Assembly: GCA_050951325.1 (NCBI GenBank)
Contig: JBMNIW010000012.1
Span: 1 to 64,000 of the forward strand
Length of the DNA: 64,000 nt
From: Clostridia bacterium
GTDB taxonomy: Bacteria; Bacillota; Clostridia; UBA1212; DUPL01
Direction: 5' to 3'
Positions 1,411 through 33,112 of this stretch are shown piece after piece. The first letter of the stretch is position 1, and every line of letters begins with the position of its first letter. The notes beneath the pieces were generated by a model. It did no database searches. It was not told the origin of the DNA and worked only from the letters and a program-made list of their open reading frames with translations. Position numbers and translations under genes: made by a program.

Positions 1411-1663
1411 AATTGATACCCCCAAGTAATTTTTGATGCTGTATCGGATTCCACAGAACACTTTACGTCTTGTAACCTCGTTCTAAATAAACCGTCTCGC
1501 ATCTCCATTTGCTGCGGTATCTAACTAATTAACAAACTCGTAAAGGGCTGTGGTCGGAGCCTCCTTGAAACCGTCAAGCGGTAGGAAAAATGACCAATCC
1601 ACAGCATCCTATACAGTATAGCAGATTTCTTCGTTCTTGGAGAGGAACTATAAAAACTACTAC
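1411..1663 (-). ncRNA. Candidate IS110 bridge RNA (upstream non-coding end)
   Basis: Two stem/internal-loop/stem domains (1547-1605 and 1461-1545). Loop sequences match the target flank and the element ends (see findings). Boundaries approximate. Confidence 0.7.
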
Positions 1664-1687
1664 TTTTATATTATACGAGGAATTTTT

Positions 1688-2104
1688 ATGGCATTCACTA
1701 CTTACGGCAGCACACAGGTGCTAAGCGGACTCATTGGCAGGAGCAGCACAGGGCCTCTCTCAAACTGCTATATTGCGCTTAGCACCACGGCTCCCAATGC
1801 GGACGGAACGAACTTCACGGAACCTTCGTCAGCGGCGGGATATGCGAGAGCGATTATCGGGCTTTCCGGAACAAGCGCGACGCAGGTCATGTCAGCACCC
1901 GCCGCAGGCTCCACATCCAACACCAGCATCATCTTCTTTCCGGAAGCGACTGCGTCCTGGGGAACGGTTACCCACTTCGGTCTCTATACAGCGCAGACCG
2001 GAGGCAACCTGGTGCTTTACGGAACGCTTACCAACCCCATCGCAGTAGCGGCAAATTATGTTCCGCTGTTCCGTGTCGGCAACTTCTCGCTCACGCTTTC
2101 ATAA
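1688..2104 (+). CDS. Phage tail-associated protein
   Basis: YIALSTTAP...GYAR...FPEATASWGTVTHFGLY...GGNL pattern recalled from siphophage tail proteins. RBS GAGG before ATG 1688. Upstream of holin-like genes. Confidence 0.7.
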   Translation: MAFTTYGSTQVLSGLIGRSSTGPLSNCYIALSTTAPNADGTNFTEPSSAAGYARAIIGLSGTSATQVMSAPAAGSTSNTSIIFFPEATASWGTVTHFGLYTAQTGGNLVLYGTLTNPIAVAANYVPLFRVGNFSLTLS

Positions 2105-2116
2105 GGAGGAATATCA

Positions 2117-2272
2117 ATGGATGAAAAGAAAAAGGAGCCGAAGTATCTCGACCTGTCGGCTCACGCGGAAGTAAATCTCGAAGAACTGCTCGAGCGGTTG
2201 ATGCCTCCGAAACATCCGAAACCATCGGAAACCCCGGACAAGGAGGCAAAAGAAAATGACGGTAACAACTGA
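2117..2272 (+). CDS. Small hypothetical phage protein, 51 aa (MDEKKKEPKYLDLS...)
   Basis: Strong AAGGAGG RBS; open frame overlapping the next start; below the ORF-track cutoff. Confidence 0.6.
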   Translation: MDEKKKEPKYLDLSAHAEVNLEELLERLMPPKHPKPSETPDKEAKENDGNN

Positions 2273-2525
2273 AACCATTATTACTGTGGCATCGATTATA
2301 ACCTCGCTTGTGGTTATTTTCGGTGCTATTTTTACGATTTACCGCTGGTATCTGAAACAGGAGAAGCAGGACAAGGACATCAAGGATATTAAAGAAGAGC
2401 AGCTTATCCTCACAATGGGTGTTCTTGCCTGCCTCAAGGGTCTCAAGGAGCAGGGCTGCGACGGTCCTGTTACGGATGCCATCGCCAGTATTGAAGCTCA
2501 CATAAACAAACAGGCACATAAATAA
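2256..2525 (+). CDS. Small single-TM phage membrane protein (holin-associated)
   Basis: N-terminal TM helix then a charged coiled segment; AAGGAGG RBS; coupled to the next gene. Confidence 0.6.
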   Translation: MTVTTETIITVASIITSLVVIFGAIFTIYRWYLKQEKQDKDIKDIKEEQLILTMGVLACLKGLKEQGCDGPVTDAIASIEAHINKQAHK

Positions 2526-2827
2526 TGGAGGAAAAAACCATGACAGACATAATGACCATACCCGCAATTGCGGCGATAGTTTACACTATAATTGATATTA
2601 CAAAAACCGCTTGCGGTGGTGACGAAAAGTTCAAACGCTTCATTCCGCTCTTCTCCGCTCTGCTCGGCGCCGTATTAGGCGTCGTTTCTTTTTACGCTGT
2701 TCCGGGGGTGGTTGAAACGCAGAACATCCTCGTGGCGATTGTGATGGGAGCCGCAAGCGGGCTCTCTGCGACAGGGACGAATCAGGCAGTGAAGCAGCTG
2801 ACGAAGGGCGGGAGCAAGCCTGACTAA
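2525..2827 (+). CDS. Putative phage holin
   Basis: Three hydrophobic segments and GAASGLSATG.NQ motif with basic C-terminus. True start may be 2540 after GGAGG. Confidence 0.7.
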   Translation: MEEKTMTDIMTIPAIAAIVYTIIDITKTACGGDEKFKRFIPLFSALLGAVLGVVSFYAVPGVVETQNILVAIVMGAASGLSATGTNQAVKQLTKGGSKPD

Positions 2828-2848
2828 GTAAATAAAAACTCCTCAAAC

Positions 2849-2887
2849 AAAGCCTACCGTGGATTATTTCTGTGGTAGGCTTTTTTG
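2849..2887 (+). terminator. Rho-independent terminator after the holin
   Basis: agcctacc...ggtaggct stem followed by a T-tract. Confidence 0.8.
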
Positions 2888-2950
2888 TCTCAATGCACCA
2901 AACAAAGCGAATAAAAGCGAAGATAATTCTACCTATTATGGTGCAGCTGT

Positions 2951-2991
2951 TATCACTTATACCCTTGATAAATCTCGTGTTATAAGTGATA
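2951..2991. promoter_or_regulatory. Perfect 11-bp inverted repeat over the probable recombinase-operon promoter
   Basis: tatcacttata-N19-tataagtgata, enclosing TTGATA, 40 bp before the first recombinase start. Confidence 0.5.
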
Positions 2992-3030
2992 TATATGTAT
3001 AGAAACTTTAAAAAAAGGAGCTGTAAAGAA

Positions 3031-3927
3031 ATGAAAAACAGACCACGTCGGGTAGCGGTTTACTGCCGTGTCAGCACTCTCGCCGAGTCACAGGAGGAGT
3101 CCTTTGAAACACAGTGCGCCGCATACGAAAAGATGATCTCAAACGACCCGAAACTTGAGCTTGTACGTGTCTACGGAGATAGGGGAATATCGGGAGCAAC
3201 CATGAAGCACAGACCGGAGTTTATGCAGATGATGGAGGACTGCGAGGGCGGGAAAATTGACCTCATTATAACAAAAAGCATCTCACGCTTTGCCAGAAAC
3301 CTTGCCGATTGCATGGATACCGTTCGCCGCCTTCGGGAGCTTGGCATCTCGGTACTCTTCGAGCGGGAGGGAATCGATACCATGAGCGGTAGCGGGGAGA
3401 TGCTGCTCTCAGTACTTGCCTCCATTGCACAGGAGGAAATCAACAACATGAGCCAGAATATCCGCTGGGCAGCCGAGCGGAACAATGCCTCCGGCAACCC
3501 TACCACTCCCGCACGGTACGGTTACCGTAAAGAACGCAAAGGAACAAAACATATATGGATAATCAACGAGCCTGAGGCACGTAGGGTTCGGTATGCTTTC
3601 GAGAAAGCTGAGGCGGGCTGGAAGTACTGTAAAATTCGCCGGGGGCTTGACGCAATGGAGGCAGCCGAGGGGACTGGGGTTAAGTGGACGCAGTCTCGTT
3701 TATACGGCATGCTTCGCAGTGAGAATTATATCGGCGACATACTGACGAGCAAGCGTTTCAAGCCCGACTATCTGCAAAAGCGGAGCCTGCCCAACAAAGG
3801 TCAGCACCCTCAATATTATATCGAGGGGCATCACGAGGCGATTATAGAAAAAGAGCAGTTTCGGCGGGTGGCGGAACGGATTAAAAATGAAAGGAATAGA
3901 AAAAATGAGCAGAAAACCAACGATTGA
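3031..3927 (+). CDS. Large serine recombinase 1 (resolvase plus recombinase domains, no zinc ribbon)
   Basis: YCRVST catalytic motif, ITKSISRFARN, HHEAII. AAGGAG RBS before ATG 3031. Confidence 0.92.
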   Translation: MKNRPRRVAVYCRVSTLAESQEESFETQCAAYEKMISNDPKLELVRVYGDRGISGATMKHRPEFMQMMEDCEGGKIDLIITKSISRFARNLADCMDTVRRLRELGISVLFEREGIDTMSGSGEMLLSVLASIAQEEINNMSQNIRWAAERNNASGNPTTPARYGYRKERKGTKHIWIINEPEARRVRYAFEKAEAGWKYCKIRRGLDAMEAAEGTGVKWTQSRLYGMLRSENYIGDILTSKRFKPDYLQKRSLPNKGQHPQYYIEGHHEAIIEKEQFRRVAERIKNERNRKNEQKTND

Positions 3928-5404
3928 GGTTATACAGCGGCAAAAGGCAGTAGGCACTACCACAGGCACAAAACCACAGAAAAAGCGTGTTGCCGCCTAC
4001 TGCCGTGTCAGCACTGAATATGAAGAGCAGCAGAGCAGTCTTGAGATACAGATGTCGGCTTTCCGTGAGCAGATTGACGCACGACCTGACTGGAAGCTAG
4101 CGGGGATATACGCCGACCGTGGGATAAGCGGAACACAGGTACAAAACCGCACAGAGTTTCTGCGAATGATGGAGGACGCTGAGAATGGTCTTATAGATTA
4201 TATCATTACAAAGAGTATCAGCCGTTTTGCACGGAACACCCTTGAGTGTCTTTCCTATGTGCGTCACCTGAGGGAGATGGGAGTGTTCGTATATTTTGAA
4301 AAAGAGCGGCTGGACACGAGTAGCAGCACCTCCGAGATGCTACTCTCCATCCTTGCCGCCGTTGCACAGGAGGAGAGCCGGAACATATCCGAGAACATAA
4401 AGTGGAGTCAGCGAAAGCGGTACGCCGAGGGTAAGCCTAAGTGGTCGGCTGTCTACGGTTACCAAAAGATTGGCGAGATAGAGTATATCATAGACGAAGA
4501 ACGTGCCACAGTTGTCAGGCGCATTTTCGCAGAGTATATTTTGGGCGCATCCCTGCCTGAGATATCACGGGGGCTTGCAAGAGATGGCATTTCCTCCGCA
4601 ACAGGCAAGTCCTGGTCTCCCACGGTTCTCGCAAAGATACTCAGAAACGAAAAATACTGCGGCGACGTTCTGATACAGAAAACTTACACGGTTGACCACA
4701 TAACACAAAAACGAGTAGTAAACGACCAAGCAGTTGTGCCCAGCTATTATGTGCGGGACCATCACAAAGCCATAATAGACCGAAAGACCTTCGAGACAGC
4801 ACAAGTTATTCTCTCCCTAAAAAACCGTCACAAGGGGGCGACACAGTACCCGTATTACGGGCGGCTTGCCTGCCCTGTCTGCGGCGAACAAATGGTCAGG
4901 AGCTGCATTCGTGAGCATGGTCACCCGCCGGTCTGGCGGTGCTGCGGGGAAAGCCGATGCCGAGCATATTTTATTAAAGAAAAGTATATTGACAGTGCCT
5001 TCTGCACAGCATATTCTGAGTTGGACACAGAGGCTCTTGAGAGGCAGGCACGGCGGCGTGACGAGAAAATATCAGGGGCGGCACGGGTGGCAATTGGACT
5101 CAAAGAAAAGCTGCCACAGATTGACAGGGTTGAGTATTATCTGCTTGACGCACTTGTGGATCGCATTGTATTTCCGAAGTGGGACACGATGGTGGTTGAG
5201 TGGACTTTTGGGCTTAAAAGTCGGGTGAGGATAGAATACCTAAGAGAAAGTGATATTCCGAACCACAAGGAGCAGCTGAGGTCTGTTGGAAGCCGAAGCC
5301 TGTCTCGGATTGAGGATCGACAAGGAAAAACACTCTCCCCCACGGTGTTTGAGCGTCCTTGTATTTATGGATATGACAGTATTGTGGAAGGAGGGCTACA
5401 ATGA
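3905..5404 (+). CDS. Large serine recombinase 2 with zinc ribbon
   Basis: YCRVST, SISRFARN, CPVCG...WRC. Overlaps both neighbours. Confidence 0.92.
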   Translation: MSRKPTIEVIQRQKAVGTTTGTKPQKKRVAAYCRVSTEYEEQQSSLEIQMSAFREQIDARPDWKLAGIYADRGISGTQVQNRTEFLRMMEDAENGLIDYIITKSISRFARNTLECLSYVRHLREMGVFVYFEKERLDTSSSTSEMLLSILAAVAQEESRNISENIKWSQRKRYAEGKPKWSAVYGYQKIGEIEYIIDEERATVVRRIFAEYILGASLPEISRGLARDGISSATGKSWSPTVLAKILRNEKYCGDVLIQKTYTVDHITQKRVVNDQAVVPSYYVRDHHKAIIDRKTFETAQVILSLKNRHKGATQYPYYGRLACPVCGEQMVRSCIREHGHPPVWRCCGESRCRAYFIKEKYIDSAFCTAYSELDTEALERQARRRDEKISGAARVAIGLKEKLPQIDRVEYYLLDALVDRIVFPKWDTMVVEWTFGLKSRVRIEYLRESDIPNHKEQLRSVGSRSLSRIEDRQGKTLSPTVFERPCIYGYDSIVEGGLQ

Positions 5405-6600
5405 GAATAACAAGAGTATATGGAGAACAGACAAAAAAGCGAGTTGCCGCCTACTGTCGAGTTAGTACCGACACTGCCGGTCAGCAGGAGAGTTATGACA
5501 CGCAAGTGCGTTATTACGAGACGCTTATCCCCTCAAATCCTGACTGGGAGTATATCGGGGTGTATGCCGACGAGGGGCGAAGCGGCACAGGGGTGAAAAA
5601 CCGACCGGAATTTTTGCGGCTTATGAGGGACTCTGATAAAGGCGAAATTGACATTATACTTACAAAGTCCATCAGCCGTTTTGCTCGAAACGTGGTGGAC
5701 TGCCAGCGGTATGTAAAAGACTTAAAATCAAAAGGAGTGGAAGTTCGATTTGAGCGTGAGGGCATCAGCAGCATGGACGCAGGGGCGGATTTCATTTTCT
5801 CCATGCTCTCTATGGTGGCGCAGGAGGAGAGCCGCTCAATCAGCGAGAACGTGAAGTGGCGGTATGAAAAAAACTTTGAAAAAGGCGTCTATCATCTGGG
5901 CAGCGGTCGCATCCTCGGGTATGACATGAATGAGGATGGAAAGTTGATACCAAATGAAGACGCCTGGATTATTCAGAGGATATTTGAAAGTTACGCTTCC
6001 GGGGAGAGTCTTAGCGAGATTGCAGATGACCTTAATATTTCGGGTGCAAAACGACTCCGATGTGACAAGCCATTTGACTCATCCCTTATCTGGCGGATGC
6101 TCAGGAACGAATGCTATGTCGGGGACAGGCTGCTGCAGAAGAACCCGCCGAGGGATTTTCTGACAAAGCGACCGGACGTGAGTACCGAGCATAAAAGTTA
6201 TTATATAAGGGACAGCCACGAGGGTATTATTGACCGGAAGACGTGGGCTGCGGTTAAGGCAAGAATTGATGCCGAAGCCGCCGAGCGTTCCGTGGGAATT
6301 TATCGAAACTGCACTAATACTCATTTCCTATATGGGAAGGTGTTCTGCGCCGAGTGCGGCTCCCCGTATACACGACGGACATTTAAAAACCGGCAGGGTG
6401 AGAGTTACAAAGCATGGAACTGCCGTGAGCGCCAGAGGGGCAAGAAAGGGTGCAAGAATAGCAGTATAAAAGAGGATGTGCTGCTGGGGGCGATAAGCCA
6501 AGCGCCGGGGGTAGAGGAATTTGAGCGGGAGGTGTTTGAGGAACTGGTGGAGAAGGTTTTGATTGATGGAAAGGAGATTAGGATTGAGGTGAGGAGGTAA
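5401..6600 (+). CDS. Large serine recombinase 3 with zinc ribbon
   Basis: YCRVST, SISRFARN, CAECG...WNC...GC. ATGA overlap with recombinase 2. Confidence 0.92.
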   Translation: MRITRVYGEQTKKRVAAYCRVSTDTAGQQESYDTQVRYYETLIPSNPDWEYIGVYADEGRSGTGVKNRPEFLRLMRDSDKGEIDIILTKSISRFARNVVDCQRYVKDLKSKGVEVRFEREGISSMDAGADFIFSMLSMVAQEESRSISENVKWRYEKNFEKGVYHLGSGRILGYDMNEDGKLIPNEDAWIIQRIFESYASGESLSEIADDLNISGAKRLRCDKPFDSSLIWRMLRNECYVGDRLLQKNPPRDFLTKRPDVSTEHKSYYIRDSHEGIIDRKTWAAVKARIDAEAAERSVGIYRNCTNTHFLYGKVFCAECGSPYTRRTFKNRQGESYKAWNCRERQRGKKGCKNSSIKEDVLLGAISQAPGVEEFEREVFEELVEKVLIDGKEIRIEVRR

Positions 6601-6618
6601 AAAAACCGCGTCCTGCTA

Positions 6619-7117
6619 TTAATCGCCTTTTTTGATATCCAGCGACCAACCGCAGTCGCCGTGATAGATCATTTGCCTTGCCATTCCGCCGTCAATGCAG
6701 ATGTTTTCACCGGTGATAAATCCCGCCATATCCGAGCAAAGATATAATACTATATTCGCAATATCAATCGGCTTTCCCACGCGACCTGCGAGATGCTGAA
6801 CGGCGTCCGCCCCCTCATACACCTTACCGGCAGTATCTATCCAGCCGGGTGAAATTGAATTGACGCGTACCCGTCCGGCAAGGCTGCGGCACCTCTGAGC
6901 CGGGGGATAGCAAATGCCTCGTATGAGGATTTTGAGTATGCTCTGAAGGTCGGAGTTGCAGCACCCTTTTATCTTGCAAAACTTTTCATGCCCTACTTTG
7001 CCGAGGGAGCGTCGATTGTTAATATTTCCGCGCGACCGCATGAGTCAGTCACAAACCGAAAGCTACACAGCGGCAAAGGGAGGTATTTCCGCGCTCACTC
7101 ACGTGCTGGCTGTGTCG
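6619..7117. pseudogene. SDR-family oxidoreductase pseudogene with an inverted internal segment
   Basis: C-terminus SLAGRVRVNSISPGWID...FITGENICIDGG on minus (6619-~6885). Preceding part GIANASYEDF...IVNIS / RDRMSQSQTESYTAAKGGISALTHVLAVS on plus (~6887-7117) with a frameshift. N-terminus not found. Confidence 0.85.
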
Positions 7118-7186: not shown

Positions 7187-8083
7187 TCATATTATCACCA
7201 GAGGTGTAAGGATTGGAGTATTAAAATCTTTCATTATCTTTCTGGTATCTTCTACCATTAAGTCAAATATCGTTTTTTGATCTCCTTCACCAACAGGCCA
7301 ACGAAATCTCTTCCCCTCAAATCCCTTTAACAGAAGAAAATCGTCAATTGGCAATACGTAGGCAATATCACTAATATCACCTATCTGGATTTTCTTGGGT
7401 TCCAGATTCCAAACCATTCGAAAATGCTTTCCGTCTTTTATCTTACGCGCAAAACGATTTTCTTCTAACTCACCAAAGACCATCCTCAGTTCCTTCTGAT
7501 AAGCATAAGCATTATTCTTTTCAAATAAAGGGCTAGTTGCTTTCGTCTCAGAGAAATCAAAGAACCGTATCCGGTCCAACATAAAAAGAAAAATATCGCC
7601 ATACTCATCTATGAGAGACTGCCCTACCCGCCGCAAGAAGGAATCGAAATCGCAGATTATTACAGCTGTATCTCCGAACTGTTTCATTCTTTCATCGGGT
7701 TGAACAAAGAAATCCGTATTTGGATCATGTTCAAGACAATATAGGCTATAAATCTTCATATACTGCGCTTCGTGCGAATAAATAAACGACACCTGCTTAA
7801 CTACTTCCTTGAAGCCGGGGTCTGCTCCTTTTAGGAGCTCACAGTTTTGGATATCGGTGGTCACCGAAACAGTACCCTCATGGATATCACCTCTGAAGTT
7901 GTTATTTAATACTGAGTTATCTGTATTCGAATTATTCTTATTCCAAATACCAAAGTCGTGCAGAGGGCGCATAAAGATTTCACCTTGCATCAATTTATCA
8001 GCCCATTGCTTATCTGTCACCTTTACTGGGATAAACTTTTGGTGTGTTTTTATATCCTTACCCTTTTCGCAGGCATTTAACAT
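7187..8083 (-). CDS. Hypothetical protein, 298 aa
   Basis: Long ORF with GGGGAG RBS; no family confidently recognised. Confidence 0.75.
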   Translation of the reverse strand: MLNACEKGKDIKTHQKFIPVKVTDKQWADKLMQGEIFMRPLHDFGIWNKNNSNTDNSVLNNNFRGDIHEGTVSVTTDIQNCELLKGADPGFKEVVKQVSFIYSHEAQYMKIYSLYCLEHDPNTDFFVQPDERMKQFGDTAVIICDFDSFLRRVGQSLIDEYGDIFLFMLDRIRFFDFSETKATSPLFEKNNAYAYQKELRMVFGELEENRFARKIKDGKHFRMVWNLEPKKIQIGDISDIAYVLPIDDFLLLKGFEGKRFRWPVGEGDQKTIFDLMVEDTRKIMKDFNTPILTPLVII

Positions 8084-8205
8084 CAGTTTTACTCCCCATT
8101 TTCTTTATCTACATACTGAGCCCCTCTGATATCCGCTCCTCACGAATAGTCAGATGCATCTTATCACATTGTAATTTGATGTTCCTATCATACTTTTAAA
8201 TTGAC

Positions 8206-9390
8206 TCAGTATTTCCGCCATACCATTCTGTCAACCACACCAGTATAAGACTGGATGATTTTTACGACCTTAGTCGATACGTTTTCCTCGATGTAGTCCG
8301 GAACGGGGATTCCGTAGTCACCATTTCTGTTCATCTCAACCGCGGTGTCAACGGCCTGCAGCAGTGATTTCTCGTCAATCCCGGCAAGGATAAAGCAGGC
8401 CTTGTCAAGTGCTTCGGGGCGCTCGGTGGAGGTTCTTATGCACACCGCCGGGAACGGATGACCTATTGATGTGAAGAAGCTTGATTCCTCCGGCAGAGTT
8501 CCGGAATCCGAAACAACCGCAAAAGCGTTCATCTGTAGCTTGTTGTAGTCGTGGAATCCGAGCGGCTCGTGCTGAATCACGCGGCGGTCAAGCACAAAGC
8601 CCGATGCCTCAAGCCGCTTCTTTGAGCGCGGATGGCAGGAATAGAGAATCGGCATATCGTACTTTTCAGCCATTCTGTTGATTGCGTTGAACAGGGAGAG
8701 GAAGTTCTTTTCGGTATCAATGTTTTCCTCTCTGTGCGCGGAAAGCAGAATATATTTTTTCGGTTTGAGGTTTAGTCTGTCAAGAATATCCGAAGCCTCA
8801 ATATCCTTGAGATTCGCGTGCAGCACCTCCGCCATAGGCGAGCCGGTAACATATGTACGTTCCTTCGGCAGACCGCACTCGGCAAGGTATCTTCTCGCAT
8901 GTTCGGAATACGCGAGGTTCACGTCGGAAATAATGTCTACAATCCTCCTGTTGGTTTCCTCCGGCAGGCATTCGTCCTTGCAGCGATTTCCCGCTTCCAT
9001 ATGGAAAATCGGAATATGCAGACGCTTTGCTGAGATTGCCGACAGACAGCTGTTCGTGTCGCCGAGAATCAGAAGCGCGTCGGGCTTAATCTGGCTCATC
9101 AACTTATAAGAGCAGTTGATAATGTTTCCGATGGTTGCACCGAGGTCATCCCCCACAGCATCCATATAAACTTCGGGTTTCTTAAGTTTCAAGTCATGAA
9201 AAAAAACACCGTTGAGATTGTAGTCATAATTCTGTCCGGTGTGAGCGAGAATACAGTCAAAGTATTCTCTGCATTTATTGATCACGGCTGCCAAGCGGAT
9301 AATTTCCGGGCGTGTGCCGACGATGATCAGCAGTTTCAGCTTTCCGTTATTTTGAAAACGGATATCGGAATAATCGAGTTTCATTACCAT
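8206..9390 (-). CDS. fnlC: UDP-sugar 2-epimerase, WecB/Cap5G type (UDP-L-FucNAc pathway)
   Basis: GTRPEIIR, HTGQNYD, LGDTNS, HMEAGNR, PEETNR, DSGT; follows fnlA-fnlB. Confidence 0.92.
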   Translation of the reverse strand: MVMKLDYSDIRFQNNGKLKLLIIVGTRPEIIRLAAVINKCREYFDCILAHTGQNYDYNLNGVFFHDLKLKKPEVYMDAVGDDLGATIGNIINCSYKLMSQIKPDALLILGDTNSCLSAISAKRLHIPIFHMEAGNRCKDECLPEETNRRIVDIISDVNLAYSEHARRYLAECGLPKERTYVTGSPMAEVLHANLKDIEASDILDRLNLKPKKYILLSAHREENIDTEKNFLSLFNAINRMAEKYDMPILYSCHPRSKKRLEASGFVLDRRVIQHEPLGFHDYNKLQMNAFAVVSDSGTLPEESSFFTSIGHPFPAVCIRTSTERPEALDKACFILAGIDEKSLLQAVDTAVEMNRNGDYGIPVPDYIEENVSTKVVKIIQSYTGVVDRMVWRKY

Positions 9391-9393
9391 AGC

Positions 9394-10572
9394 TCACACC
9401 TTTTCAAAGTAAGTATCCGGCTTATCCGGATTGAAGCATTCGTTTGCCCACATGATCGTGACGAGGTCTTCGGTTTCGGAGAGATTGATAATATTATGCG
9501 TATAACCCGGAATCATCTCCACAACCTGAATTTTCTCACCGCTTACCTGAAATTCAATAACAGGATAGTCAGAGCCGTTTTCATCCTTGCCTATCTTGCG
9601 CATCTGAATGAGTGCTGTGCCTTTTACTACGACAAATTTTTCGTTCTTGCTGTGATGCCAGTGATTGCCCTTCGTAATTCCGGGTTTGGACACATTCACA
9701 CTGAACTGCCCGCGGTCAGGAGTGCGGATAATTTCGGTAAAGCTCCCCCGCTCGTCACGGTTCATTTTCAAGTCGTAAATCAGCTTGTCCGCTGGAAGGT
9801 AGGACAGCCATGTGCTGTACAGCTTAGAAACAAGTGGATCGGTGAAATCCGGCACTCCGAAAGAAGCGCGAATCTCCGGAAAGCTTTTAATCGTTTCAGC
9901 AATAAAGCCGAGTGTAGTTTCATAATGAACAGGAACGGTGCAGTACGCGCCGTTTGTCGTTTCATTTCCGCCGAGCGCGCGAAGCATTTCGTCAACCAGG
10001 TCGTCTATGTATACAATATCCATCTGAACCGACGGATCATTTACTTGTATCGGCAAACCATTTGCAGTATTATGGCAGAAAGTTGCAATTGCGCTGTTGT
10101 AATTCGGTCTGCACCACTTCCCGAAAAGGTTGGGAAAACGATAGACAAGCACCTTTGCGCCTGTTTCCTTGGCATAACTGAAGAATAACTCTTCCCCTGC
10201 TCTTTTACTTTGACCGTATTCGCTTCCGGCGTAACGTCCCTCAAGGCTTGCCTGAATGGAACTGGAAAGCATAACCGGGCAGGTGTTTTTATATTTTTTC
10301 AGCGTATTCAGCAGGGTCGATGCAAAGCCGAAGTTCCCTGCCATAAAATCACTCTGCTCTTTCGGTCGGTTTACACCAGCAAGGTTAAATACAAAGTCAG
10401 CTTTCGCGCAGTATTCGTCAAGTTCAGCAAAATCAGAGTCAATGTCATAAAGGTAAAGCTCGCCAATATCAAGCTCAGGGTGCGTTTTATCTTTGCCTTC
10501 TTTGATGTTTTTCAGCGCTTCGGTCAGATTTTTCCCCACAAACCCCTTCGCACCGGTGATGAGTATGTTCAT
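9394..10572 (-). CDS. fnlB: Cap5F-type reductase with C-terminal cupin
   Basis: TGAKGFVG, NLAGVNRP, YGQSK, GKWCRPNYNS, KGNHWHH. TAATG overlap with fnlA. Confidence 0.92.
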   Translation of the reverse strand: MNILITGAKGFVGKNLTEALKNIKEGKDKTHPELDIGELYLYDIDSDFAELDEYCAKADFVFNLAGVNRPKEQSDFMAGNFGFASTLLNTLKKYKNTCPVMLSSSIQASLEGRYAGSEYGQSKRAGEELFFSYAKETGAKVLVYRFPNLFGKWCRPNYNSAIATFCHNTANGLPIQVNDPSVQMDIVYIDDLVDEMLRALGGNETTNGAYCTVPVHYETTLGFIAETIKSFPEIRASFGVPDFTDPLVSKLYSTWLSYLPADKLIYDLKMNRDERGSFTEIIRTPDRGQFSVNVSKPGITKGNHWHHSKNEKFVVVKGTALIQMRKIGKDENGSDYPVIEFQVSGEKIQVVEMIPGYTHNIINLSETEDLVTIMWANECFNPDKPDTYFEKV

Positions 10573-11618
10573 TACTTGTTCTCCCATGCTGCGATTTCAT
10601 CTCTGATATACTGCAAAGAAAGCAGCTTTTCTTTAACTTGCTCAACATTAAGAAGTTCCGTGTTGTTGGAGTTGAACTCGGTTAAAGTATTGCGCTTTGT
10701 ATCTCCTTCTTTGAAATATTTATCGTAGTTGAGATCGCGTTTATCGCAAGGAACACGATAGAAGTTCCCGAGATCAATGGCATTTGCACACTCTTCGTTG
10801 GTCAGAAGGGTTTCGTACATCTTTTCGCCGTGGCGGATACCGATAATGCGAATATCGTCATCAGAGTGGAACAGTTCTTTTACCGCCTGAGCAAGCACGC
10901 CGATTGTGCAAGCCGGCGCTTTCTGAACAAGTATATCACCGCTTGTCCCGTTTTTAAAGGCAAACAAAACAAGATCGACCGCCTCGTCAAGCGACATGAT
11001 GAAACGGGTCATGTTGGGGTCCGTAATTGTGATAGGCTTTCCCGCCTTAATCTGTTCAATCCAAAGCGGAATGACCGACCCACGGGAGCACATGACATTA
11101 CCATATCGGGTACAGCAAATTTTCGTCTTGTCCGGATCAACCGTACGAGACTTCGCCACAATAACCTTTTCCATCATGGCCTTGCTTGTCCCCATTGCGT
11201 TTACGGGGTATGCCGCTTTATCGGTAGAGAGGCAAATGACCGTCTTTACGCCTGCCTCAATTGCGGCGGTCAGCACATTGTCGGTTCCGATCACGTTGGT
11301 TTTAACCGCTTCCATCGGGAAAAACTCGCAGGACGGCACTTGTTTTAAGGCCGCCGCGTGGAATATATAGTCAACGCCGTGCATGGCGTTCTTGACCGAC
11401 GCAATATCGCGCACGTCTCCGATATAAAATTTGATTTTATCCGCGACATCCGGCATCTTTGCCTGATACTCGTGCCGCATATCATCCTGCTTTTTTTCGT
11501 CGCGGGAGAAGATGCGAATCTCGCCGATGTCGGTATATAAAAAGCGATTGAGAACGGCATTGCCGAAGGAGCCGGTCCCGCCGGTGATGAGTAGGGTTTT
11601 TTGTGTGAAATGTCCCAT
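10572..11618 (-). CDS. fnlA: UDP-GlcNAc 4,6-dehydratase/epimerase, Cap5E type
   Basis: TGGTGSFG, FSRDEKKQ, HAAALKQVPSCEF, LSTDKA, RYGNV, RHGEK. Confidence 0.95.
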   Translation of the reverse strand: MGHFTQKTLLITGGTGSFGNAVLNRFLYTDIGEIRIFSRDEKKQDDMRHEYQAKMPDVADKIKFYIGDVRDIASVKNAMHGVDYIFHAAALKQVPSCEFFPMEAVKTNVIGTDNVLTAAIEAGVKTVICLSTDKAAYPVNAMGTSKAMMEKVIVAKSRTVDPDKTKICCTRYGNVMCSRGSVIPLWIEQIKAGKPITITDPNMTRFIMSLDEAVDLVLFAFKNGTSGDILVQKAPACTIGVLAQAVKELFHSDDDIRIIGIRHGEKMYETLLTNEECANAIDLGNFYRVPCDKRDLNYDKYFKEGDTKRNTLTEFNSNNTELLNVEQVKEKLLSLQYIRDEIAAWENK

Positions 11619-25859: not shown

Positions 25860-26975
25860 CTAAAAGCAGCTTTTGATGATTTCGATAACCTCGTCCTGTT
25901 GCTCTTCTGTCATCTTGATATCCGACGGCAAGCATAAACCCCGCTCAAATATTTCACCGGCGATATCCCTGCCCTCCAAAGTAATATAGTCATTAGCCGC
26001 GAACACCGGCTGCAAATGCATCGGCTTCCAGATAGGACGCGACTCTATATTGTTTTCTTCAAGCCTCAATCGAATTTGTTCGGGTGTTACACCGACTCCT
26101 TCATCCATTAGAATACAGCTCATCCAGAAATTAGGCCGGCTGGATGCAAGATAAGGATTCATTTTTACCGGCAGGTCTCTCAGTCCTTGCTGATACCTAC
26201 GATAAATCTTTTCTTTGCGGTCTCTATGTTCATCCAGGGCTAAGAGTTGACCGCGCCCGATGCCGGCGACAATATTGCTCATCCTGTAATTGTAACCGAT
26301 TTCACTGTGCTGGTACCAGGGAGCGGGATCCCGTGACTGCGTTGCCCAGAAACGGGCTTTTTTTATCCCGTCTTCATCGTCGCTGACCAACATACCGCCA
26401 CCCGAAGTGGTGATAATTTTATTCCCATTAAATGAAAAGATACCATACTTGCCAAACGTGCCTGTTTGTTTGCCTTTATATGTAGCGGAAAGGCTCTCAG
26501 CTGCGTCTTCAATTAAAGTCGCACCGTGAGCGTCGCAAATGGAGCGTATTTCGTCAAGTTTTGCAGGTACTCCGTACAAGTTAACAACGATTACACATTT
26601 GCAATCAGGATACTTCTCGAATGCCTTTTCGAGAGCTTTTGGATCCATGTTCCAAGTATCCCTCTCGGAATCAATGAAAACCTGTACACCGCCCTCGTAT
26701 GACACGGGGTTGACAGTAGCGGAGAAAGTCAGGTCTGAGCAAAAGACAACATTCCCGCGCTTGACACCGGCAAGTTTTACTGCAAGATGCAAAGCTGACG
26801 TGCCCGACACTAAAGCTGCGGCATGTTTAATTCCGACATACTCAGCTATCTCACGCTCGAAACCATCAACATTTGGGCCTAAAGGAGCTATCCAGTTAGT
26901 TTCAAATGCTTCTGTTATGAATTTTTGTTCGTCTCCGTGCATTGTAGGTGACGACAAAAAAATTCTATTGCTCAT
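25860..26975 (-). CDS. DegT/DnrJ/EryC1/StrS aminotransferase, EpsN/PglE type (intact)
   Basis: NWIAPLGPNV, EDAAES, FSFNGNKIITTSGGG, GYNYRM. Confidence 0.93.
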   Translation of the reverse strand: MSNRIFLSSPTMHGDEQKFITEAFETNWIAPLGPNVDGFEREIAEYVGIKHAAALVSGTSALHLAVKLAGVKRGNVVFCSDLTFSATVNPVSYEGGVQVFIDSERDTWNMDPKALEKAFEKYPDCKCVIVVNLYGVPAKLDEIRSICDAHGATLIEDAAESLSATYKGKQTGTFGKYGIFSFNGNKIITTSGGGMLVSDDEDGIKKARFWATQSRDPAPWYQHSEIGYNYRMSNIVAGIGRGQLLALDEHRDRKEKIYRRYQQGLRDLPVKMNPYLASSRPNFWMSCILMDEGVGVTPEQIRLRLEENNIESRPIWKPMHLQPVFAANDYITLEGRDIAGEIFERGLCLPSDIKMTEEQQDEVIEIIKSCF

Positions 26976-27009
26976 TTCTTACTCCTTTGTTTTTAGTCAC
27001 GCACACACT

Positions 27010-27447
27010 GATGAGGTAAAGATAATTACATAACATTCATTGTTTTTGTAAGGAACTTATCCTCGTGGCGGGTGTAGCTTTGTTACTGCAAAACTTCAGT
27101 TGAAAATCTAAAAATAACTTAAAAATATATAAACCAAAAAGCCGTAGAAGTGTTGATATATAAGGCTTTTTGAGGTGACCGTAATATCAGATGTTTGTAA
27201 GAAACTTTACCCCGTGAAAAAATTAAAGAGAAAGAGAAAGGAAATATTTTTTGTATAATATAACCAATTTAGCTCCGTTATATGACGCAATTTGTTTATT
27301 ATGCACAAGATTTAGCTGTTATTATCTTATCCTCATGCGGAGTTGCTCATGTTTTGAAGCCCATTATCACTCCATATTGTGGTTATTATCTCATCCGCAT
27401 ACTATATGTTGTGTCGTCATTTTGACGGTTTGGAACTTGTCTTCATG
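27010..27447. repeat. Cluster of six degenerate 21-bp repeats (five direct, one inverted)
   Basis: Copies at 27047, 27196, 27317, 27381 and 27427 on plus, and inverted at 27010. Approximate consensus TGTWAKKAWCTTWWCCTCRTG. Confidence 0.75.
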
Positions 27448-28044
27448 TAAACTGTAATTGGTGAAGTCCGCAAGAGTGCCGACCATCTTTCCATGATAAG
27501 AAGCACCTAAAGCGTGTGCTGCATCGGAAACAACAACCACATGACCGATAGCTTCCTGAATCTTATTGGCCGGATGGAACAGTGCTTTCTTCCGTTCAAC
27601 GATTTCATAAATGCGATCATAATCACAAGGAATACCACCAAGGTCAACAGGAACAATAACTTTCGTTTTTTCGGTGATAGCCGCTTCCAGTGCATCGTAG
27701 TCCATTTCGAGACTATCCGGGTTCATAGAACAATCAACAAGAACCACCTTTGCCCCGACATGGATAGCAACAGAGGCAGAAGCAGTATATGTATAGGCAC
27801 AGGTAATGACTTCATCGCCTTCGCCAATTCCAAGTACACGCAAACTGGTTTCAGCAGCAGCGGTCTGGCTGTTCAGACAAACCATCTTGCTTGTACCAAC
27901 CCATGTAGCAAGTTTTTCCTCAAGTAGTTTTGTTCTTGGCCCGGTAGTTATCCATCCTGAACGCATCGCATCAGATACATACTGAATTTCAAGTTCTGAA
28001 ACATCAGGCGGAGAGAACGGAATATTCATTTTTTTCATACTCAA
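27391..28044 (-). pseudogene. 3'-truncated DegT aminotransferase, WcfR/AatB-like
   Basis: IPFSPPD...SGWITTGP start and DAAH. Similarity stops at NYSLH where SFHAVK is expected; C-terminal half absent. Confidence 0.88.
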
Positions 28045-28290
28045 TTACCTCATTAAAATTCGAATTGTGCCCGCTTAAATGTGAACCACAATATAAAAAC
28101 ACTTCAAAATATTGTCCATTTTTGCTATTGACATTTCAACTTTTATGTGATATAATTAAGTGACTGTGATAAAAAAGCAGTCACAATAAAAAATAACACC
28201 ACAGAAAACACTGTGCAGTAATAATCGCATCAAATCGCAAAAAGCCGCACCACATAAGGCTTTTTAGCGGTTGTCCCTATTATCCTTCGT

Positions 28291-28404
28291 TCACCAGTTG
28301 GTTTCATATGCTTCCGTTATATACTTTAATTCCTCGCCATGCATTGTAGGACTTGCAAGCCATACTTTACTTTCAAAAGGCTTGATTCCGGTATTATTGA
28401 ACAT
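28291..28404 (-). pseudogene. 5' fragment of a DegT aminotransferase, 37 aa
   Basis: MFNNTGIKPFESKVWLASPTMHGEELKYITEAYETNW* aligns with the N-terminus of 25860-26975; GGGAG RBS. Confidence 0.85.
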
Positions 28405-28474: not shown

Positions 28475-28894
28475 TTACTGTTGGTTTAACTTATCTCTCA
28501 AAATCGTGCTTGAAATACCCTCTGTATGTGGAAGGTACTGCACTTTACACCCAACTTTCGCTAGTTCTTCTTCAATCTTCTTCCACTTCTCAGTTCCTTC
28601 CCAATCGGAACCAACAAACATAACATCAATATGGTTATTGACAACAGTTTCAACTTTGCCTTGTATGTCATACCGTTCTTGAGGTATAACCTTATCCACG
28701 TACTTTATTGCTTCGACGATTGTTGCTCTTTCTGAATATGGAATAATTGGCGTCTTGTGCTTATTCTGTTCAACTACTTCATCCGTAGTAACGCCAACAA
28801 TCAGATAGTCACAGTTGTCTTTGGCATTTTTAATTACATTTAGATGACCAATGTGGAACATATCATACACACCGGCCGTATAACCAATTATCAT
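28475..28894 (-). CDS. Second TagD-like cytidylyltransferase
   Basis: GVYDMFHIGH, GSDWEG, ISSTILR; paralogue of 23900-24331. Confidence 0.9.
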   Translation of the reverse strand: MIIGYTAGVYDMFHIGHLNVIKNAKDNCDYLIVGVTTDEVVEQNKHKTPIIPYSERATIVEAIKYVDKVIPQERYDIQGKVETVVNNHIDVMFVGSDWEGTEKWKKIEEELAKVGCKVQYLPHTEGISSTILRDKLNQQ

Positions 28895-28923
28895 CGCTGA
28901 CTCCTTATATTCAAACACGGCTT

Positions 28924-29451: not shown

Positions 29452-30901
29452 GGCTCTTCGCTGTTTTGTATGGGTAAGCATGAGCAAAGTCTTATGATGA
29501 AAGCTAAATAATTTCCAGTTAGCTTCACTACTTAGCATCGCTTAAGTTAAGTTTACCAGCTATTAAATAAATCATTGTGATATAATTTCTTATAGAACGG
29601 TATCCTCTTGCTCTACTTTTCGCAGCTTGCACAAGACTATTTATGCCTTCTAATGTTGCATTAGTAAGGTTTGAGTCAAAATAGTTGCAAATTCCACTCC
29701 AATGCTTCTTTATACATTTGGCTAATTCCTTGATAGGATCAATTCTTGAACGGATTGCCCAATTGTACCATTTTTGCAGAAGGTTTATTGCTTCCGCCTT
29801 ATCATTAGATGCATATACATCCTGTAAAGCTATTTTTATTCTGTATGCTTTCCCTGTTTTCAAATTGCTATTTGCTAATGAATCTAGTTTTTTCTTCTGT
29901 TTTTCTGTTAAGTTATTATAATTTTTTAGCCAAATATATCTAGTGTTTTTAAGTTCTTCCTTACGTTCTTTTTGTTCAGTTCGCCTTACCTCATCAAGTG
30001 CCTCATTCATCATTTTGATTACATGAAATTTATCGAAAGTTATTCCTGACCACCCAAAATTCTCTTTTATACCTTTTATAAAAGCAGGAGACATATCACA
30101 TGAAAAATGATCTATATTACTTGGTTTTCCTTGATGTTTTTTAAAATCATCTTTAAATCTGTCAACAGTTGTTGAATCTTTACCTTCAGTAACAAATATA
30201 ACTTTTGACTTTTCCATGTCTGCAAAAACAGTAACATAATTATGACCCTTTTTACTTGAGGTTTCATCTAATCCTATTGACTTTACTTCCTCATAATTTT
30301 CATTTTCTCTTGCAGTGTCTACATAGTGATGAATTATTCTCCATAAACGAGTATCTTGTTCATCAACAAGTTCCGCTATTGCTTTTACAGTCATTTGACT
30401 AACAAGTTCCATGATAAAAGCTTCGAATAATAGTGTAAATCCACTTCCGCTCCTCGCCCATGGAACGTCAATAAGCAAAGGTCCATCTATGGGACAGTCC
30501 GATCTTGGAGTTCTGCAATGTATATAAGCTTTATATTGAAAAAAATTAAGATGCCTCCATGTTTTATCCTCTGTATCATATGCTTTTAAATTAGTAGTTC
30601 CACACTTTTTACAATTAAATAAACCACCTCTTTTAAAATCTACATATATATGAAGTTCTCCTATTTCCTTTTGAAAATTAATATTCTTTATGTACCATGG
30701 CTCGTTTATACTTAAAGCTTGAGCAAATAAAACTGCATTATTATACATTGAAAATCCTCCTACGCTAAATAAATCTTTTTCTCTCTAATTGTATAAAAAA
30801 ATACTGTTATTTGCAAAAATATTTTTTATAATATAATTTTTACATTTACATTTATGCCTATTTATCCCATGTAACTTACCCATACAAAACAGCGAAGAGC
30901 C
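29452..30901 (-). mobile_element. ISL3-family element, 1450 bp
   Basis: Perfect 27-bp IRs GGCTCTTCGCTGTTTTGTATGGGTAAG; 8-bp target duplication TAATATAA (29444-29451 and 30902-30909). Confidence 0.95.
29528..30748 (-). CDS. ISL3 transposase
   Basis: CxxC, GLDE, SCDM, FDKFHV, TNATLEGINS, ARGYR. Confidence 0.95.
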   Translation of the reverse strand: MYNNAVLFAQALSINEPWYIKNINFQKEIGELHIYVDFKRGGLFNCKKCGTTNLKAYDTEDKTWRHLNFFQYKAYIHCRTPRSDCPIDGPLLIDVPWARSGSGFTLLFEAFIMELVSQMTVKAIAELVDEQDTRLWRIIHHYVDTARENENYEEVKSIGLDETSSKKGHNYVTVFADMEKSKVIFVTEGKDSTTVDRFKDDFKKHQGKPSNIDHFSCDMSPAFIKGIKENFGWSGITFDKFHVIKMMNEALDEVRRTEQKERKEELKNTRYIWLKNYNNLTEKQKKKLDSLANSNLKTGKAYRIKIALQDVYASNDKAEAINLLQKWYNWAIRSRIDPIKELAKCIKKHWSGICNYFDSNLTNATLEGINSLVQAAKSRARGYRSIRNYITMIYLIAGKLNLSDAK

Positions 30902-30977: not shown

Positions 30978-31427
30978 TTAGGCGGCTTTTGTGGTTGTCC
31001 CTATTATACATCGAGCAAGATGTACGACGATAACAGCTTTCACTCTATCGCCATACTTTTCAAGAGCCTCTTCTAAGGCATTAGGATCCATGTTCCATGT
31101 TTCATAGTTACTATCTATGAAAACTGGAATTGCATTTTGATATATTACTGGGTTTACAGTGGCAATAAAGGTCAACGTTGGACATAGAACAATATCCCCT
31201 TGTCCTACTCCAACAGATTTTAATGCCATATGTATTGCAGCCGTTCCGGATGCTAATGCAGCAGCATGCTTTGCTCCTACCTTTGCAGCAAGCTCCTGCT
31301 CGAACTTGTTTACATTCTCACCAAGTGGTGCGATCCAATTAGTATTCAAAAGCCTCATGTATACATAGTACTGCTCATAACCTTCATCACTCATATGTGG
31401 TGATGACAACCAAATTCTTTTTGACAT
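30978..31427 (-). pseudogene. 3'-truncated DegT aminotransferase, EpsN type
   Basis: WLSSPHMS...NWIAPLGENV; similarity ends at VIVVHL (~31018). Also a short compensating frameshift near codons 22-27. Confidence 0.88.
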
Positions 31428-31695: not shown

Positions 31696-32392
31696 CTATT
31701 CGTAATCGTAGTACTTGTTGTTCCGCTTTACATTAACATCATTTACTATGATTCCGAGCACCTTTACCTTTGCAAATTCTATGGCATCCAAGTGCCTTTT
31801 TAATTTCGTCATACGTAGTAACCTTCTGCCTTGAGACGAGGGCAACTCCTGCAGTCTTGGGTGCAAGGACTATTGCATCTGTTACCACATTTATTGGTGG
31901 CGTGTCAATCACTATGTAGTCGTAAAACTCATTAAGTTTGTCCAACAATACATCCATCCTGTTGCTTCCAAGCAATTCTGATGGATTTGGAGGAATTGGA
32001 CCTGATGTGATAAGATCAAGGTTTTTATCCACGTCTTTGTGTATTGCCTCGCCTAGCTTGTCAAATCCAACCAATATTGTAGACAGTCCATGTGAATTGT
32101 CAACCCTGAATATCTTATGCTGAGTTGGCTTGCGTAAATCTGCATCAATTATCAATACTCTGTTTGCATTCTGCGCCAGAGTAATTGCAATATTGGCACA
32201 TGTAATACTTTTTCCTTCAGCAGGGAATGATGAAGATATAATAAAGGATTTGTTTTTACTGCCTGCCAAAGCAAACTGCAAGTTTGTCCTTATTGTCTTG
32301 TAAGACTCCTGCATCACAAAGGAAGATTTATCATCCAGCTTGTACTTATGTGGTGCGTCACTATGCTCGTTTGTTCTTCTACCTAGAGCCAT
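31696..32392 (-). CDS. CpsD/CapB-family tyrosine kinase, frameshifted near the C-terminus
   Basis: ESYKTIRTN, EGKS, DADLRKP, DTPP. The alternative frame after ~31792 gives KVLGIIVN and a Tyr-rich tail ending at 31696. Confidence 0.85.
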
Positions 32393-33112
32393 AACTGTAA
32401 TATCCTCCTTTATCTTTATTTTGAAAACTTGGCACTTCTCCTAATACAGGAAGTCCATACCTTTGTGATAGATCCTCTCCACCCTTTGACGGTATTGTCA
32501 AGGTGAGTCAACCAAGAGGATGATACCACAGGAAAGTATCAATCCCAATAATCCACCCAATGCCGTGTACATCGCAACATTAGGCGAAGATGGCTTTGTT
32601 GGCACAACTGCTGTGTCAATTACCGACACCCGGCTGTTTCCAACAATATCTTCAATTATCGATGGTGCGTTCTTGGCAAATGAATTACAGATTTCTGCCG
32701 ACAATGCAGGGTCCGGGGTTACTGCTTCTATCTCCAAGACTTCTGTATTGTTTACTGCACGCATGTTTATGTACTTAGATATATCTTGTGCGCTTAAAGC
32801 AGCTGTATTCAAATCAGATGCAATCACCTTTAATGAATCCCTGCTTTCAAGCAGCACTATGTATGTTGATACAAGACTTCTACTTAAATCCAATTGCGTT
32901 TTTGTCAGTGACGACCCCTCTTCCACGTCAACAAATAATCTAATACTTGATGTGTACTTGGGAGTTATCACAAAACTTGCCAAATAAAACATGATAAGAA
33001 TTCCAGTCAGCATTGCAGCTATAATCCAAACCAGTTTGCTTATCAACAAGTCGAAAATATAGCGAATGTCTATCGTATCCTGCATGAAGTTTCCACCATT
33101 TTCATAATCCAT
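32380..33112 (-). CDS. Wzz/CpsC chain-length determinant, two apparent frameshifts near the C-terminus
   Basis: TM-PKY...PSSPN-TM. The continuation LDNTVK / GEDL...GLPVLGEVP lies in shifted frames. Confidence 0.8.

Follow-up and report, generated by a model that had tools for sequence, protein, structure and literature searches.

A single nucleotide, between N and TTA-CAYG, joins one conserved module head to 16 different truncated upstream sequences at the entry of surface-polysaccharide cassettes. The module was found in a stretch of 64,000 nucleotides from a Clostridia bacterium (contig JBMNIW010000012.1, positions 1 to 64,000), referred to here as the window, in which an array of six 21-mers precedes the first gene of such a cassette. 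The joint recurs with nucleotide precision, the modules are discrete, and block boundaries fall at site edges. These observations support the original prediction that the 21-mers mark a recombination joint where an exchangeable polysaccharide cassette enters. We give about even weight to the more specific reading that the 21-mers are copies of an approximately 24-bp recombination site bounding exchangeable cassette heads. Together, the module and the recurrent joint point to an undescribed site-directed swapping of surface-polysaccharide cassettes.

All six 21-mers that had been predicted are present, and they constitute two stacked modules, one comprising c5-c4-c3 and the other c2-c1-c0. The copies and modules are located as follows.

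27427 to 27447, minus strand: c5, head copy of the upstream module, HEDKFQT; its joint with the truncated aminotransferase is at 27448-27450 (TTA)
27381 to 27401, minus strand: c4, a degenerate inner copy, YADEIIT, which carries the stop codon of the truncated gene
27317 to 27337, minus strand: c3, an inner copy, HEDKIIT
27196 to 27216, minus strand: c2, HGVKFLT, which heads the second module; a block shared with Butyricicoccus (790/793) starts at its 5' edge
27047 to 27067, minus strand: c1, an inner copy, 16 nt from c0, a spacing kept in related modules
27010 to 27030, plus strand: c0, the sole inverted copy and the best-conserved piece of the module tail
27220 to 27450, minus strand: type-C module, 231 bp, c5-c4-c3
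27004 to 27219, minus strand: type-W head module, with c2, then c1, 16 nt and c0, ending in CAGTGTG

The irregular start-to-start spacings of the prediction (149, 121, 64 and 46 bp) hold, as does the 58-bp imperfect palindrome formed by c0 and c1, which face each other across 16 bp with 14 of 21 arm positions complementary. On the gene strand, all six copies read in one frame as (H/Y/D)-x-x-(K/E)-x-x-T. The H-x-x-K-x-x-T form is that of the pyridoxal-phosphate (PLP)-lysine motif of DegT aminotransferases, at which the stump gene breaks; that all six copies share this form had been overlooked. The departure of the 21-mers from chance was assessed with leave-one-out matrices on both strands of the whole 3.08-Mb genome (6,165,532 positions). 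The outside positions that equal or exceed the left-out copy in score number 0 for c1 and c3, 1 for c0, 9 for c2, 51 for c5 and 57 for c4, corresponding to an expectation of at most 0.008 such positions per 440-bp stretch. With 0-57 of 6.17 million outside positions scoring as high, the significance of the 21-mers is upheld. A matrix built from all six copies, which is circular by construction, gives the copies 22.9-28.6 bits and the next genome position 21.65 bits, and in the matrix scan the cluster is unique within this genome (G000). A degenerate pattern matches three times in the window compared with 0.42 expected, and three matches were also obtained in 2 of 100 shuffles. The array does not consist of pieces of a decayed aminotransferase pseudogene, an origin that was rejected on the grounds that likeness stops at the 21-mer edges and that the flanks have neither SF before nor GEGG after. 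A possible resemblance of the c1-c0 pair to a dif-like Xer site was set aside; it lies away from the joint. A variant c5 head with one extra base is seen in contigs of runs X2 and X4, from two studies, which match the array up to 27438 and go on with 12 letters that differ.

All genes of the array region lie on the minus strand. The neighboring features, and those at the start of the contig, are the following.

32498 to 33112, minus strand: Wzz
31739 to 32392, minus strand: tyrosine-kinase-like ATPase
30978 to 31427, minus strand: DegT stump, truncated by an ISL3 element after its first 149 codons; it shares 59% identity with the intact gene
29528 to 30748: ISL3-family transposase gene, between this DegT stump and the cytidylyltransferase gene
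28475 to 28918, minus strand: cytidylyltransferase
28294 to 28371, minus strand: 26-codon DegT fragment from the beginning of a 371-aa-type gene, matching residues 3-28 of the intact gene at 65% identity
27391 to 28044, minus strand: DegT stump, the front 200 codons of a 404-411-aa aminotransferase fused to c5, with a stop 19 codons later
27135 to 27172: hairpin whose 12-nt arms are 92% complementary and separated by 14 nt; on the minus strand a T run comes after it
26409 to 26429, minus strand: the lysine-motif 21-mer of the intact DegT gene itself, NGNKIIT; the shared block stops at its 5' edge, with the first mismatch at 26427
25860 to 26975, minus strand: intact DegT aminotransferase, 371 aa, the first cassette gene
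6619 to 7041: 3' fragment of a short-chain dehydrogenase gene, abutted by serine recombinase genes
2986 to 6600: three tandem large serine recombinase genes, 20 kb from the array
contig start, within the 226-7041 region: IS110-family transposase

The intact DegT gene is followed by a Bac_transf priming transferase gene and then by approximately 18 kb of polysaccharide genes, to approximately 7187. Beyond these, the 226-7041 region probably represents the end of a distinct integrative element, which continues past the contig edge. The rest of the ISL3-cut DegT gene is absent. A dead gene start like the 26-codon fragment is also found between module and gene in L096 and its relatives. On the plus strand, a perfect sigma-70 consensus (28128-28156; TTGACA, 17 nt, TG-TATAAT, 12/12) lies just upstream of the stump gene and faces away from it.

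The best relative of the 27391-28044 stump is 95% identical, and in tblastn this identity stops at base 27445, confirming the predicted loss of similarity at c5. At the lysine motif, eleven full-length homologues of the stump read ..(Y/F)S(F/Y)HAVKNFTTAEGG.., whereas the window stump reads ..YS-LHEDKFQTVKMTTQHIVCG-stop at the same point (S-LHEDKFQTVKM..stop). The copy c5 is thus in register on the PLP-lysine motif and is not the gene's own sequence, because intact members read otherwise. The window joint is spanned without difference by contigs of three of four independent runs; summed depth is higher over 25900-27500, where it is confounded by the conserved genes of other organisms.

By Pfam assignment, the 16 upstream partners of the head copy comprise nine DegT, three or four Bac_transf and one PglD_N sequence and two that are unassigned. 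The question of whether homologues in other genomes break at the same codon has a uniform answer for DegT: in 9/9 stumps the Pfam match stops at positions 175-179 of the 360-position profile, and these nine include two subfamilies only ~24% identical to each other. In three Bac_transf stumps the match ends at 58-62 of 179, the likely fourth being too short to score, and the native F-x-x-x-KFRT motif of this family is in register with the head copy. The PglD_N stump is joined out of frame. The variety of partners is already evident in the head copies of L084, L085, L087 and L096, which are fused to two different 371-aa-type DegT genes and two different Bac_transf genes. In the DegT and Bac_transf stumps without exception, TTA stands where the native motif has its F codon. 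A TT stands at the switch point in 16/16 joints, the native motifs having TTY (the F codon) or, in the PglD-like gene, ATT. A thymine pair at every joint is compatible with the two-base crossover of serine recombinases. Visual inspection shows no dyad symmetry about the joint, and the inner copies c4, c3, c1 and c0 are not preceded by TTA. Nothing on such a joint was found in the literature excerpts available.

An ordinary scar, in which the module is a conserved terminator, promoter or operator leader and the joint was formed by one or a few illegitimate events at the conserved motif and spread homologously within the module and the stump genes, is an improbable source of this pattern. There are zero extra bases between stump and TTA. 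The motif at each joint is wholly that of the module, so that no crossover is seen within the patch of likeness. At least six unrelated kinds of upstream sequence end at one nucleotide, and a purely homologous history would need at least six independent illegitimate events there, with neither extra bases nor hybrid motifs. Nor is a common donor tract visible within gene families, because carriers of the same family differ in the final 9-40 nt ahead of the joint, and the breakpoint is not event-specific but is the same nucleotide with 16 partners. Gene remnants as such are frequent where cassettes meet in polysaccharide loci, and the window holds two further stumps (the ISL3-cut frag1 and the 26-codon fragment). 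Homologous exchange could proceed through the conserved 198 bp of the commonest form of the module described below. Both the c1-16 nt-c0 spacing and the sequence of c0 are kept as those of a promoter or operator would be, but the promoter scan is empty for 26976-27130 on the minus strand and does not list a -35/-10 pair that can be assembled by eye from the c1 and c0 tails. The hairpin at 27135-27172 looks terminator-like by eye, and no terminator was called there by the scan. Given these elements, the module interior may function as an insulator (terminator plus promoter), and the c1/c0 palindrome may have an operator role.

Comparison of modules from different loci reveals a common plan with variable interiors. 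Type M is exactly 198 bp long in 8/8 cases, which align without gaps at 84% mean identity. Its order is TTA and the head 21-mer, ~110 variable bases, c1, 16 nt, an inverted and highly conserved c0, and CAGGGTG. The type-W module of the window is homologous to a 216-bp module in L235 and is also found in the Butyricicoccus isolate; with type M it shares likeness at both ends only, the inside being different. The relative of the type-C module consists of three tandem 218-bp units (L096/L160), each of which opens with a head copy (L096). Between two contigs that are identical upstream over 1400/1400 positions, a 231-bp type-C module is present between head copies in one and missing from the other. 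Module ends are sharp, because beyond both of them the adjoining DNA differs between loci. In 19/19 loci with both module ends, the module has one orientation to the downstream gene and stands at the head of a polysaccharide operon, a form that the search favored. Rfam yielded only sub-threshold matches in the array region of the window (the best, rliE, at 29.3 bits versus a gathering score of 90, E 0.034) and none in the modules of five other loci. Consensus folding was weak on both strands (-7.9 and -7.4 kcal/mol), with no covariation support.

Discrete, fixed-length elements with conserved ends and a variable inside are also what would be expected of MITE-like non-autonomous elements, with imperfect terminal inverted 21-mers (head versus c0) and the inner c1 bound by a transposase acting in trans. 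The stumps would then have arisen by targeted insertion and later loss, or by adjacent deletions from the fixed element end. Adjacent deletions by transposons yield a constant end joined to many flanks, and here too a constant end meets many flanks and the target remainder is gone. The head copy and c0 are mutually inverted, and the window carries ISL3, IS110 and DDE transposase genes. We nonetheless judge this origin rather unlikely. As judged by eye, target duplication is found at 0/8 modules, and the termini, which start TTACA and end GGGTG, are not the usual TG...CA; these same observations speak against the TG-ended transposon with binding subsites that was offered in the original prediction. 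The two flanks are never halves of one gene, and the head matches the target motif codon for codon, which is unexpected for a transposon end. In addition, modules were found only at the heads of polysaccharide operons and in the same orientation (19/19, in a search built for this form), and they are not dispersed repeats, because G000 has a single module locus. An IS200/IS605-type single-strand or rolling-circle element was rejected: such elements follow target rules that require a specific flank, the native genes are without the required flank, and the target remainder is absent after the module.

The inversion of c0 relative to the other five copies raises a further possibility, that of an invertible promoter switch (inverton) or shufflon, in which c0 recombines with one of c1-c5 and flips a promoter. 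Inverted repeats around a promoter hexamer are indeed present. A perfect TATAAT (27254-27259, plus strand, found by eye), pointing away from the cassette, lies within the span from c0 to c3, which are 85% complementary over 20 nt with 286 nt between them, and c0 also pairs with c2 and c4. Inversion is highly unlikely to be the explanation, however, as one order and orientation is found in 19 loci elsewhere, albeit in a search that favored this form, and the stump joints and block boundaries would be left unexplained. No strand-changing joints were listed in the contigs of four runs, in which rare forms are invisible.

The occurrence of the module was traced with sequence patterns. A first degenerate scan of 185,579 species genomes returned six stretches, three of which have arrays: L084, which is the Butyricicoccus isolate, and L085 and L087, which are metagenome-bin contigs. 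A second scan added L096, an Oscillospiraceae bin. A broader pattern returned 46 genome and 88 metagenome stretches; the 126 examined include 19 complete modules and three cut by contig ends, the others being chance matches. Pattern scans catch only heads that match the pattern, and the frequency and orientation statistics are therefore biased. The narrow first pattern had 0 matches in metagenome contigs, viral contigs gave two chance matches, both without a module, and blastn of plasmid and phage collections gave no match. Among relatives of the window's genome, 0/39 matched. In a 45-genome set of the order, three genomes including G000 pass E <= 0.01, the other two through 26-50-nt matches (E 0.002-0.009). 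In 401 genomes of the Butyricicoccus order, the sole matches are to the ~180-bp insertion of the Butyricicoccus array, an unrelated repeat (49/401, including G040). A matrix scan of 80 loci (875,915 bp) with the six-copy matrix, of which c5 is a part, also picks the lysine motif of intact homologues, at 10/16 matches of at least 15 bits.

That exchange was recent and took place at the joint itself is indicated by pairs of loci. L097 and L167 are identical upstream over 1400/1400 positions and differ from the sixth module base onward. The converse arrangement, the same downstream sequence behind different upstream sequences, is seen in the pairs below, whose count would be inflated by partner switching in assembly, since the carriers are mostly metagenome bins or contigs and assemblers can switch partners within the 198-bp repeat.

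L198 and L164: upstream unrelated, downstream identical for at least 750 bp
L167 and L250: upstream unrelated, downstream identical for at least 1500 bp
L155 and L182: upstream unrelated, downstream identical for ~490 bp
L139 and L167: upstream unrelated, downstream identical for 353 bp

Single contigs run through the stump-module joints themselves, and the same structure is found in the window (12 contigs) and in an isolate genome. Just past the divergence of the sugar-transferase gene in L155 from its L182 twin, positions 1069-1189 match Rfam STnc490 at 94 bits (gathering score 56). This RNA is located on IS200 ends, and the strong match suggests an IS200-type insertion in L155. In L268 (G447:C36), a reversed polysaccharide segment of 3.78 kb (7804-11587, junction orientation) replaces 26 bp of the G446 locus; the replacement lies 353 bp past the joint, and the rest of the locus is identical to G446.

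The window shares its second module with Butyricicoccus sp. Marseille-Q5471, and the identity changes abruptly along the locus.

27221 to 27450 of the window, versus the Butyricicoccus isolate: c5-c3, 153/227 identical (67%)
26428 to 27220 of the window, versus Butyricicoccus sp. Marseille-Q5471: c2-c1-c0, leader and front half of the intact DegT gene, 790/793 identical
25860 to 26427 of the window, versus the Butyricicoccus isolate: back half of the intact DegT gene, 416/568 identical (73%)

The 790/793 block begins 4 nt ahead of c2 and ends at the F codon in front of the intact gene's own motif, which thus behaves as a site. It thus lies between site edges and therefore represents one recently exchanged unit, in organisms that are placed in different orders. 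The predicted stacking of copies is likewise supported, and this shared block, too, ends at 21-mer edges. In the isolate, the block carries one insertion of 176 bp (~180 bp; L084 1570-1760) at the point corresponding to window position 27123. With 22-bp perfect terminal inverted repeats and related copies that often occur several times per genome, this insertion looks like a MITE unrelated to the 21-mers.

The enzyme and a second boundary were sought in the window and in carrier genomes. Neither the partner site nor the missing 3' half of the gene, both of which had been expected beyond the prophage, was found in the 96%-complete assembly G000, in which the contig begins at window base 1, so that they may lie in a gap. 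All loci were fetched by the module's own pattern, and an "empty" leader without module is not among them. With neither a reciprocal product nor an empty site, insertion, deletion between a pseudo-site and a head copy, and two-site replacement are indistinguishable. The 20-38 kb surrounding the G040 and G446 arrays contain no recombinase or transposase gene. Past the joint, all genes are polysaccharide genes over 12 kb in G040 and 18.5 kb in G446, and these stretches contain no transposition genes within an element. The best relatives of the window's serine recombinases in four carrier genomes are 38-43% identical and none is beside an array; the carriers hold many large serine recombinases, just distantly related to those of the window, and no recombinase close in sequence and common to carriers was found. 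A role for the three serine recombinases of the window as the enzymes of the array is not supported, no evidence linking them to it. Other carriers have nothing closely related to the tyrosine integrase gene that lies ~7 kb upstream of the joint in G446. Next to the polysaccharide locus of that genome, 4-9 kb upstream of the joint, is a small mobilizable element with ParM-like, Mob_Pre and tyrosine integrase genes (L271, G446:C23, 3092-6979).

Site-directed recombination is favored because the fixed breakpoint recurs, the motif aligns with the head, and units move at site edges. In the mechanism that we propose, the site, whose head form would be TTA-CAYGRNGACAAGTT..ACA, would be the upstream boundary of small non-coding modules that head polysaccharide cassettes in anaerobic Clostridia-type bacteria. 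It matches F-x-x-x-K-x-x-T codon for codon in DegT genes (at the PLP lysine) and in PglC-type transferase genes (F-x-x-x-KFRT), and these gene stretches would be its natural or pseudo sites. Cutting and joining, by an enzyme supplied in trans, would always take place at the thymine pair in the F codon. The front of the resident first gene would stay behind as a stump fused to TTA and the site, and the incoming module and cassette would follow. The window would then contain two such modules stacked, c5-c4-c3 followed by c2-c1-c0, and the intact downstream aminotransferase would be a hybrid whose front half arrived with the c2-c0 module. The reaction would be conservative site-specific recombination, with the crossover at the thymine pair. 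The truly independent formations of the joint may number ~6, one per kind of upstream gene, instead of 16, because homologous recombination within the conserved module could shuffle partners. We put forward more tentatively, as a possibility that we hold to be less probable than not, a dedicated exchange system in which the site is the DNA of the catalytic-lysine motif in the enzymes that open the pathway and loci that begin with DegT or PglC genes are landing pads. Front halves, leaders and cassettes would be moved between distant anaerobes by a recombinase class, or an RNA- or DNA-guided enzyme, new to such sites.

Several known systems share features with the arrangement described here. Gene remnants are common at the cassette junctions of O-antigen, capsule and exopolysaccharide (EPS) loci. 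As in those loci, a dead gene front marks the boundary of a swapped cassette in a mosaic locus; those remnants are idiosyncratic, whereas here one module nucleotide meets 16 stumps, at one codon in DegT and Bac_transf genes. In the SCC-type composite islands of staphylococci, stacked direct repeats are left at one gene by the Ccr large serine recombinases. Similar to these islands, short sites are stacked at the end of a target gene where cargo is exchanged, large serine recombinase genes are found in the region, and a fixed two-base crossover is compatible. The main differences from SCC are that the spacers are 25-128 bp rather than whole elements, that the target is mid-gene and is not restored, that no recombinase is tied to modules in other genomes, and that no second boundary was found. 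Integron cassette arrays contain modular units bounded by attI/attC sites. The modules resemble them in being bounded by a site, with conserved ends and a variable inside, and in being stacked one way at the head of an expressed array. Unlike in integrons, there are 0 Phage_integrase matches among 54 window ORFs and no folded-hairpin signature, and the site is at the 5' end of the unit, where it mimics coding sequence. The JUMPstart/ops element, found upstream of polysaccharide operons in Gram-negative bacteria, has been proposed as both a recombination point and a regulatory site. It is likewise a short conserved non-coding element just upstream of polysaccharide clusters, but there is no sequence relation, and the module here has 198-231 bp, repeated 21-mers, and a nucleotide-precise joint to a stump. 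SPbeta in spsM is an integrative element that splits a protein-coding gene and carries a replacement part (PMC4191935). As there, the site here is inside a polysaccharide-pathway gene, and the copy borne by the element resembles the target. In contrast to the system described there, neither a phage nor an integrase is present here, the part that travels is the front half with its leader rather than the tail, and the old front stays as a stump.

What is new here is the joint at a fixed nucleotide in a site-bounded, modular cassette exchange. With a site of ~24 bp, known natural targets and a carrier in culture, the Butyricicoccus isolate, the system lends itself to direct testing. If the enzyme were identified, glycan cassettes could be swapped with it as a tool. 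Differences in surface polysaccharides determine how sensitive bacteria are to phages, how the immune system recognizes them and how fit they are in their niche. Except in Bacteroides and a small number of pathogens, cassette exchange is mostly ascribed to chance recombination. If the proposal is true, a portable module that targets active-site codons in the genes opening the pathway would constitute a directed mechanism, and such a mechanism would explain how a 99.6% identical block came to be in two organisms of different orders.
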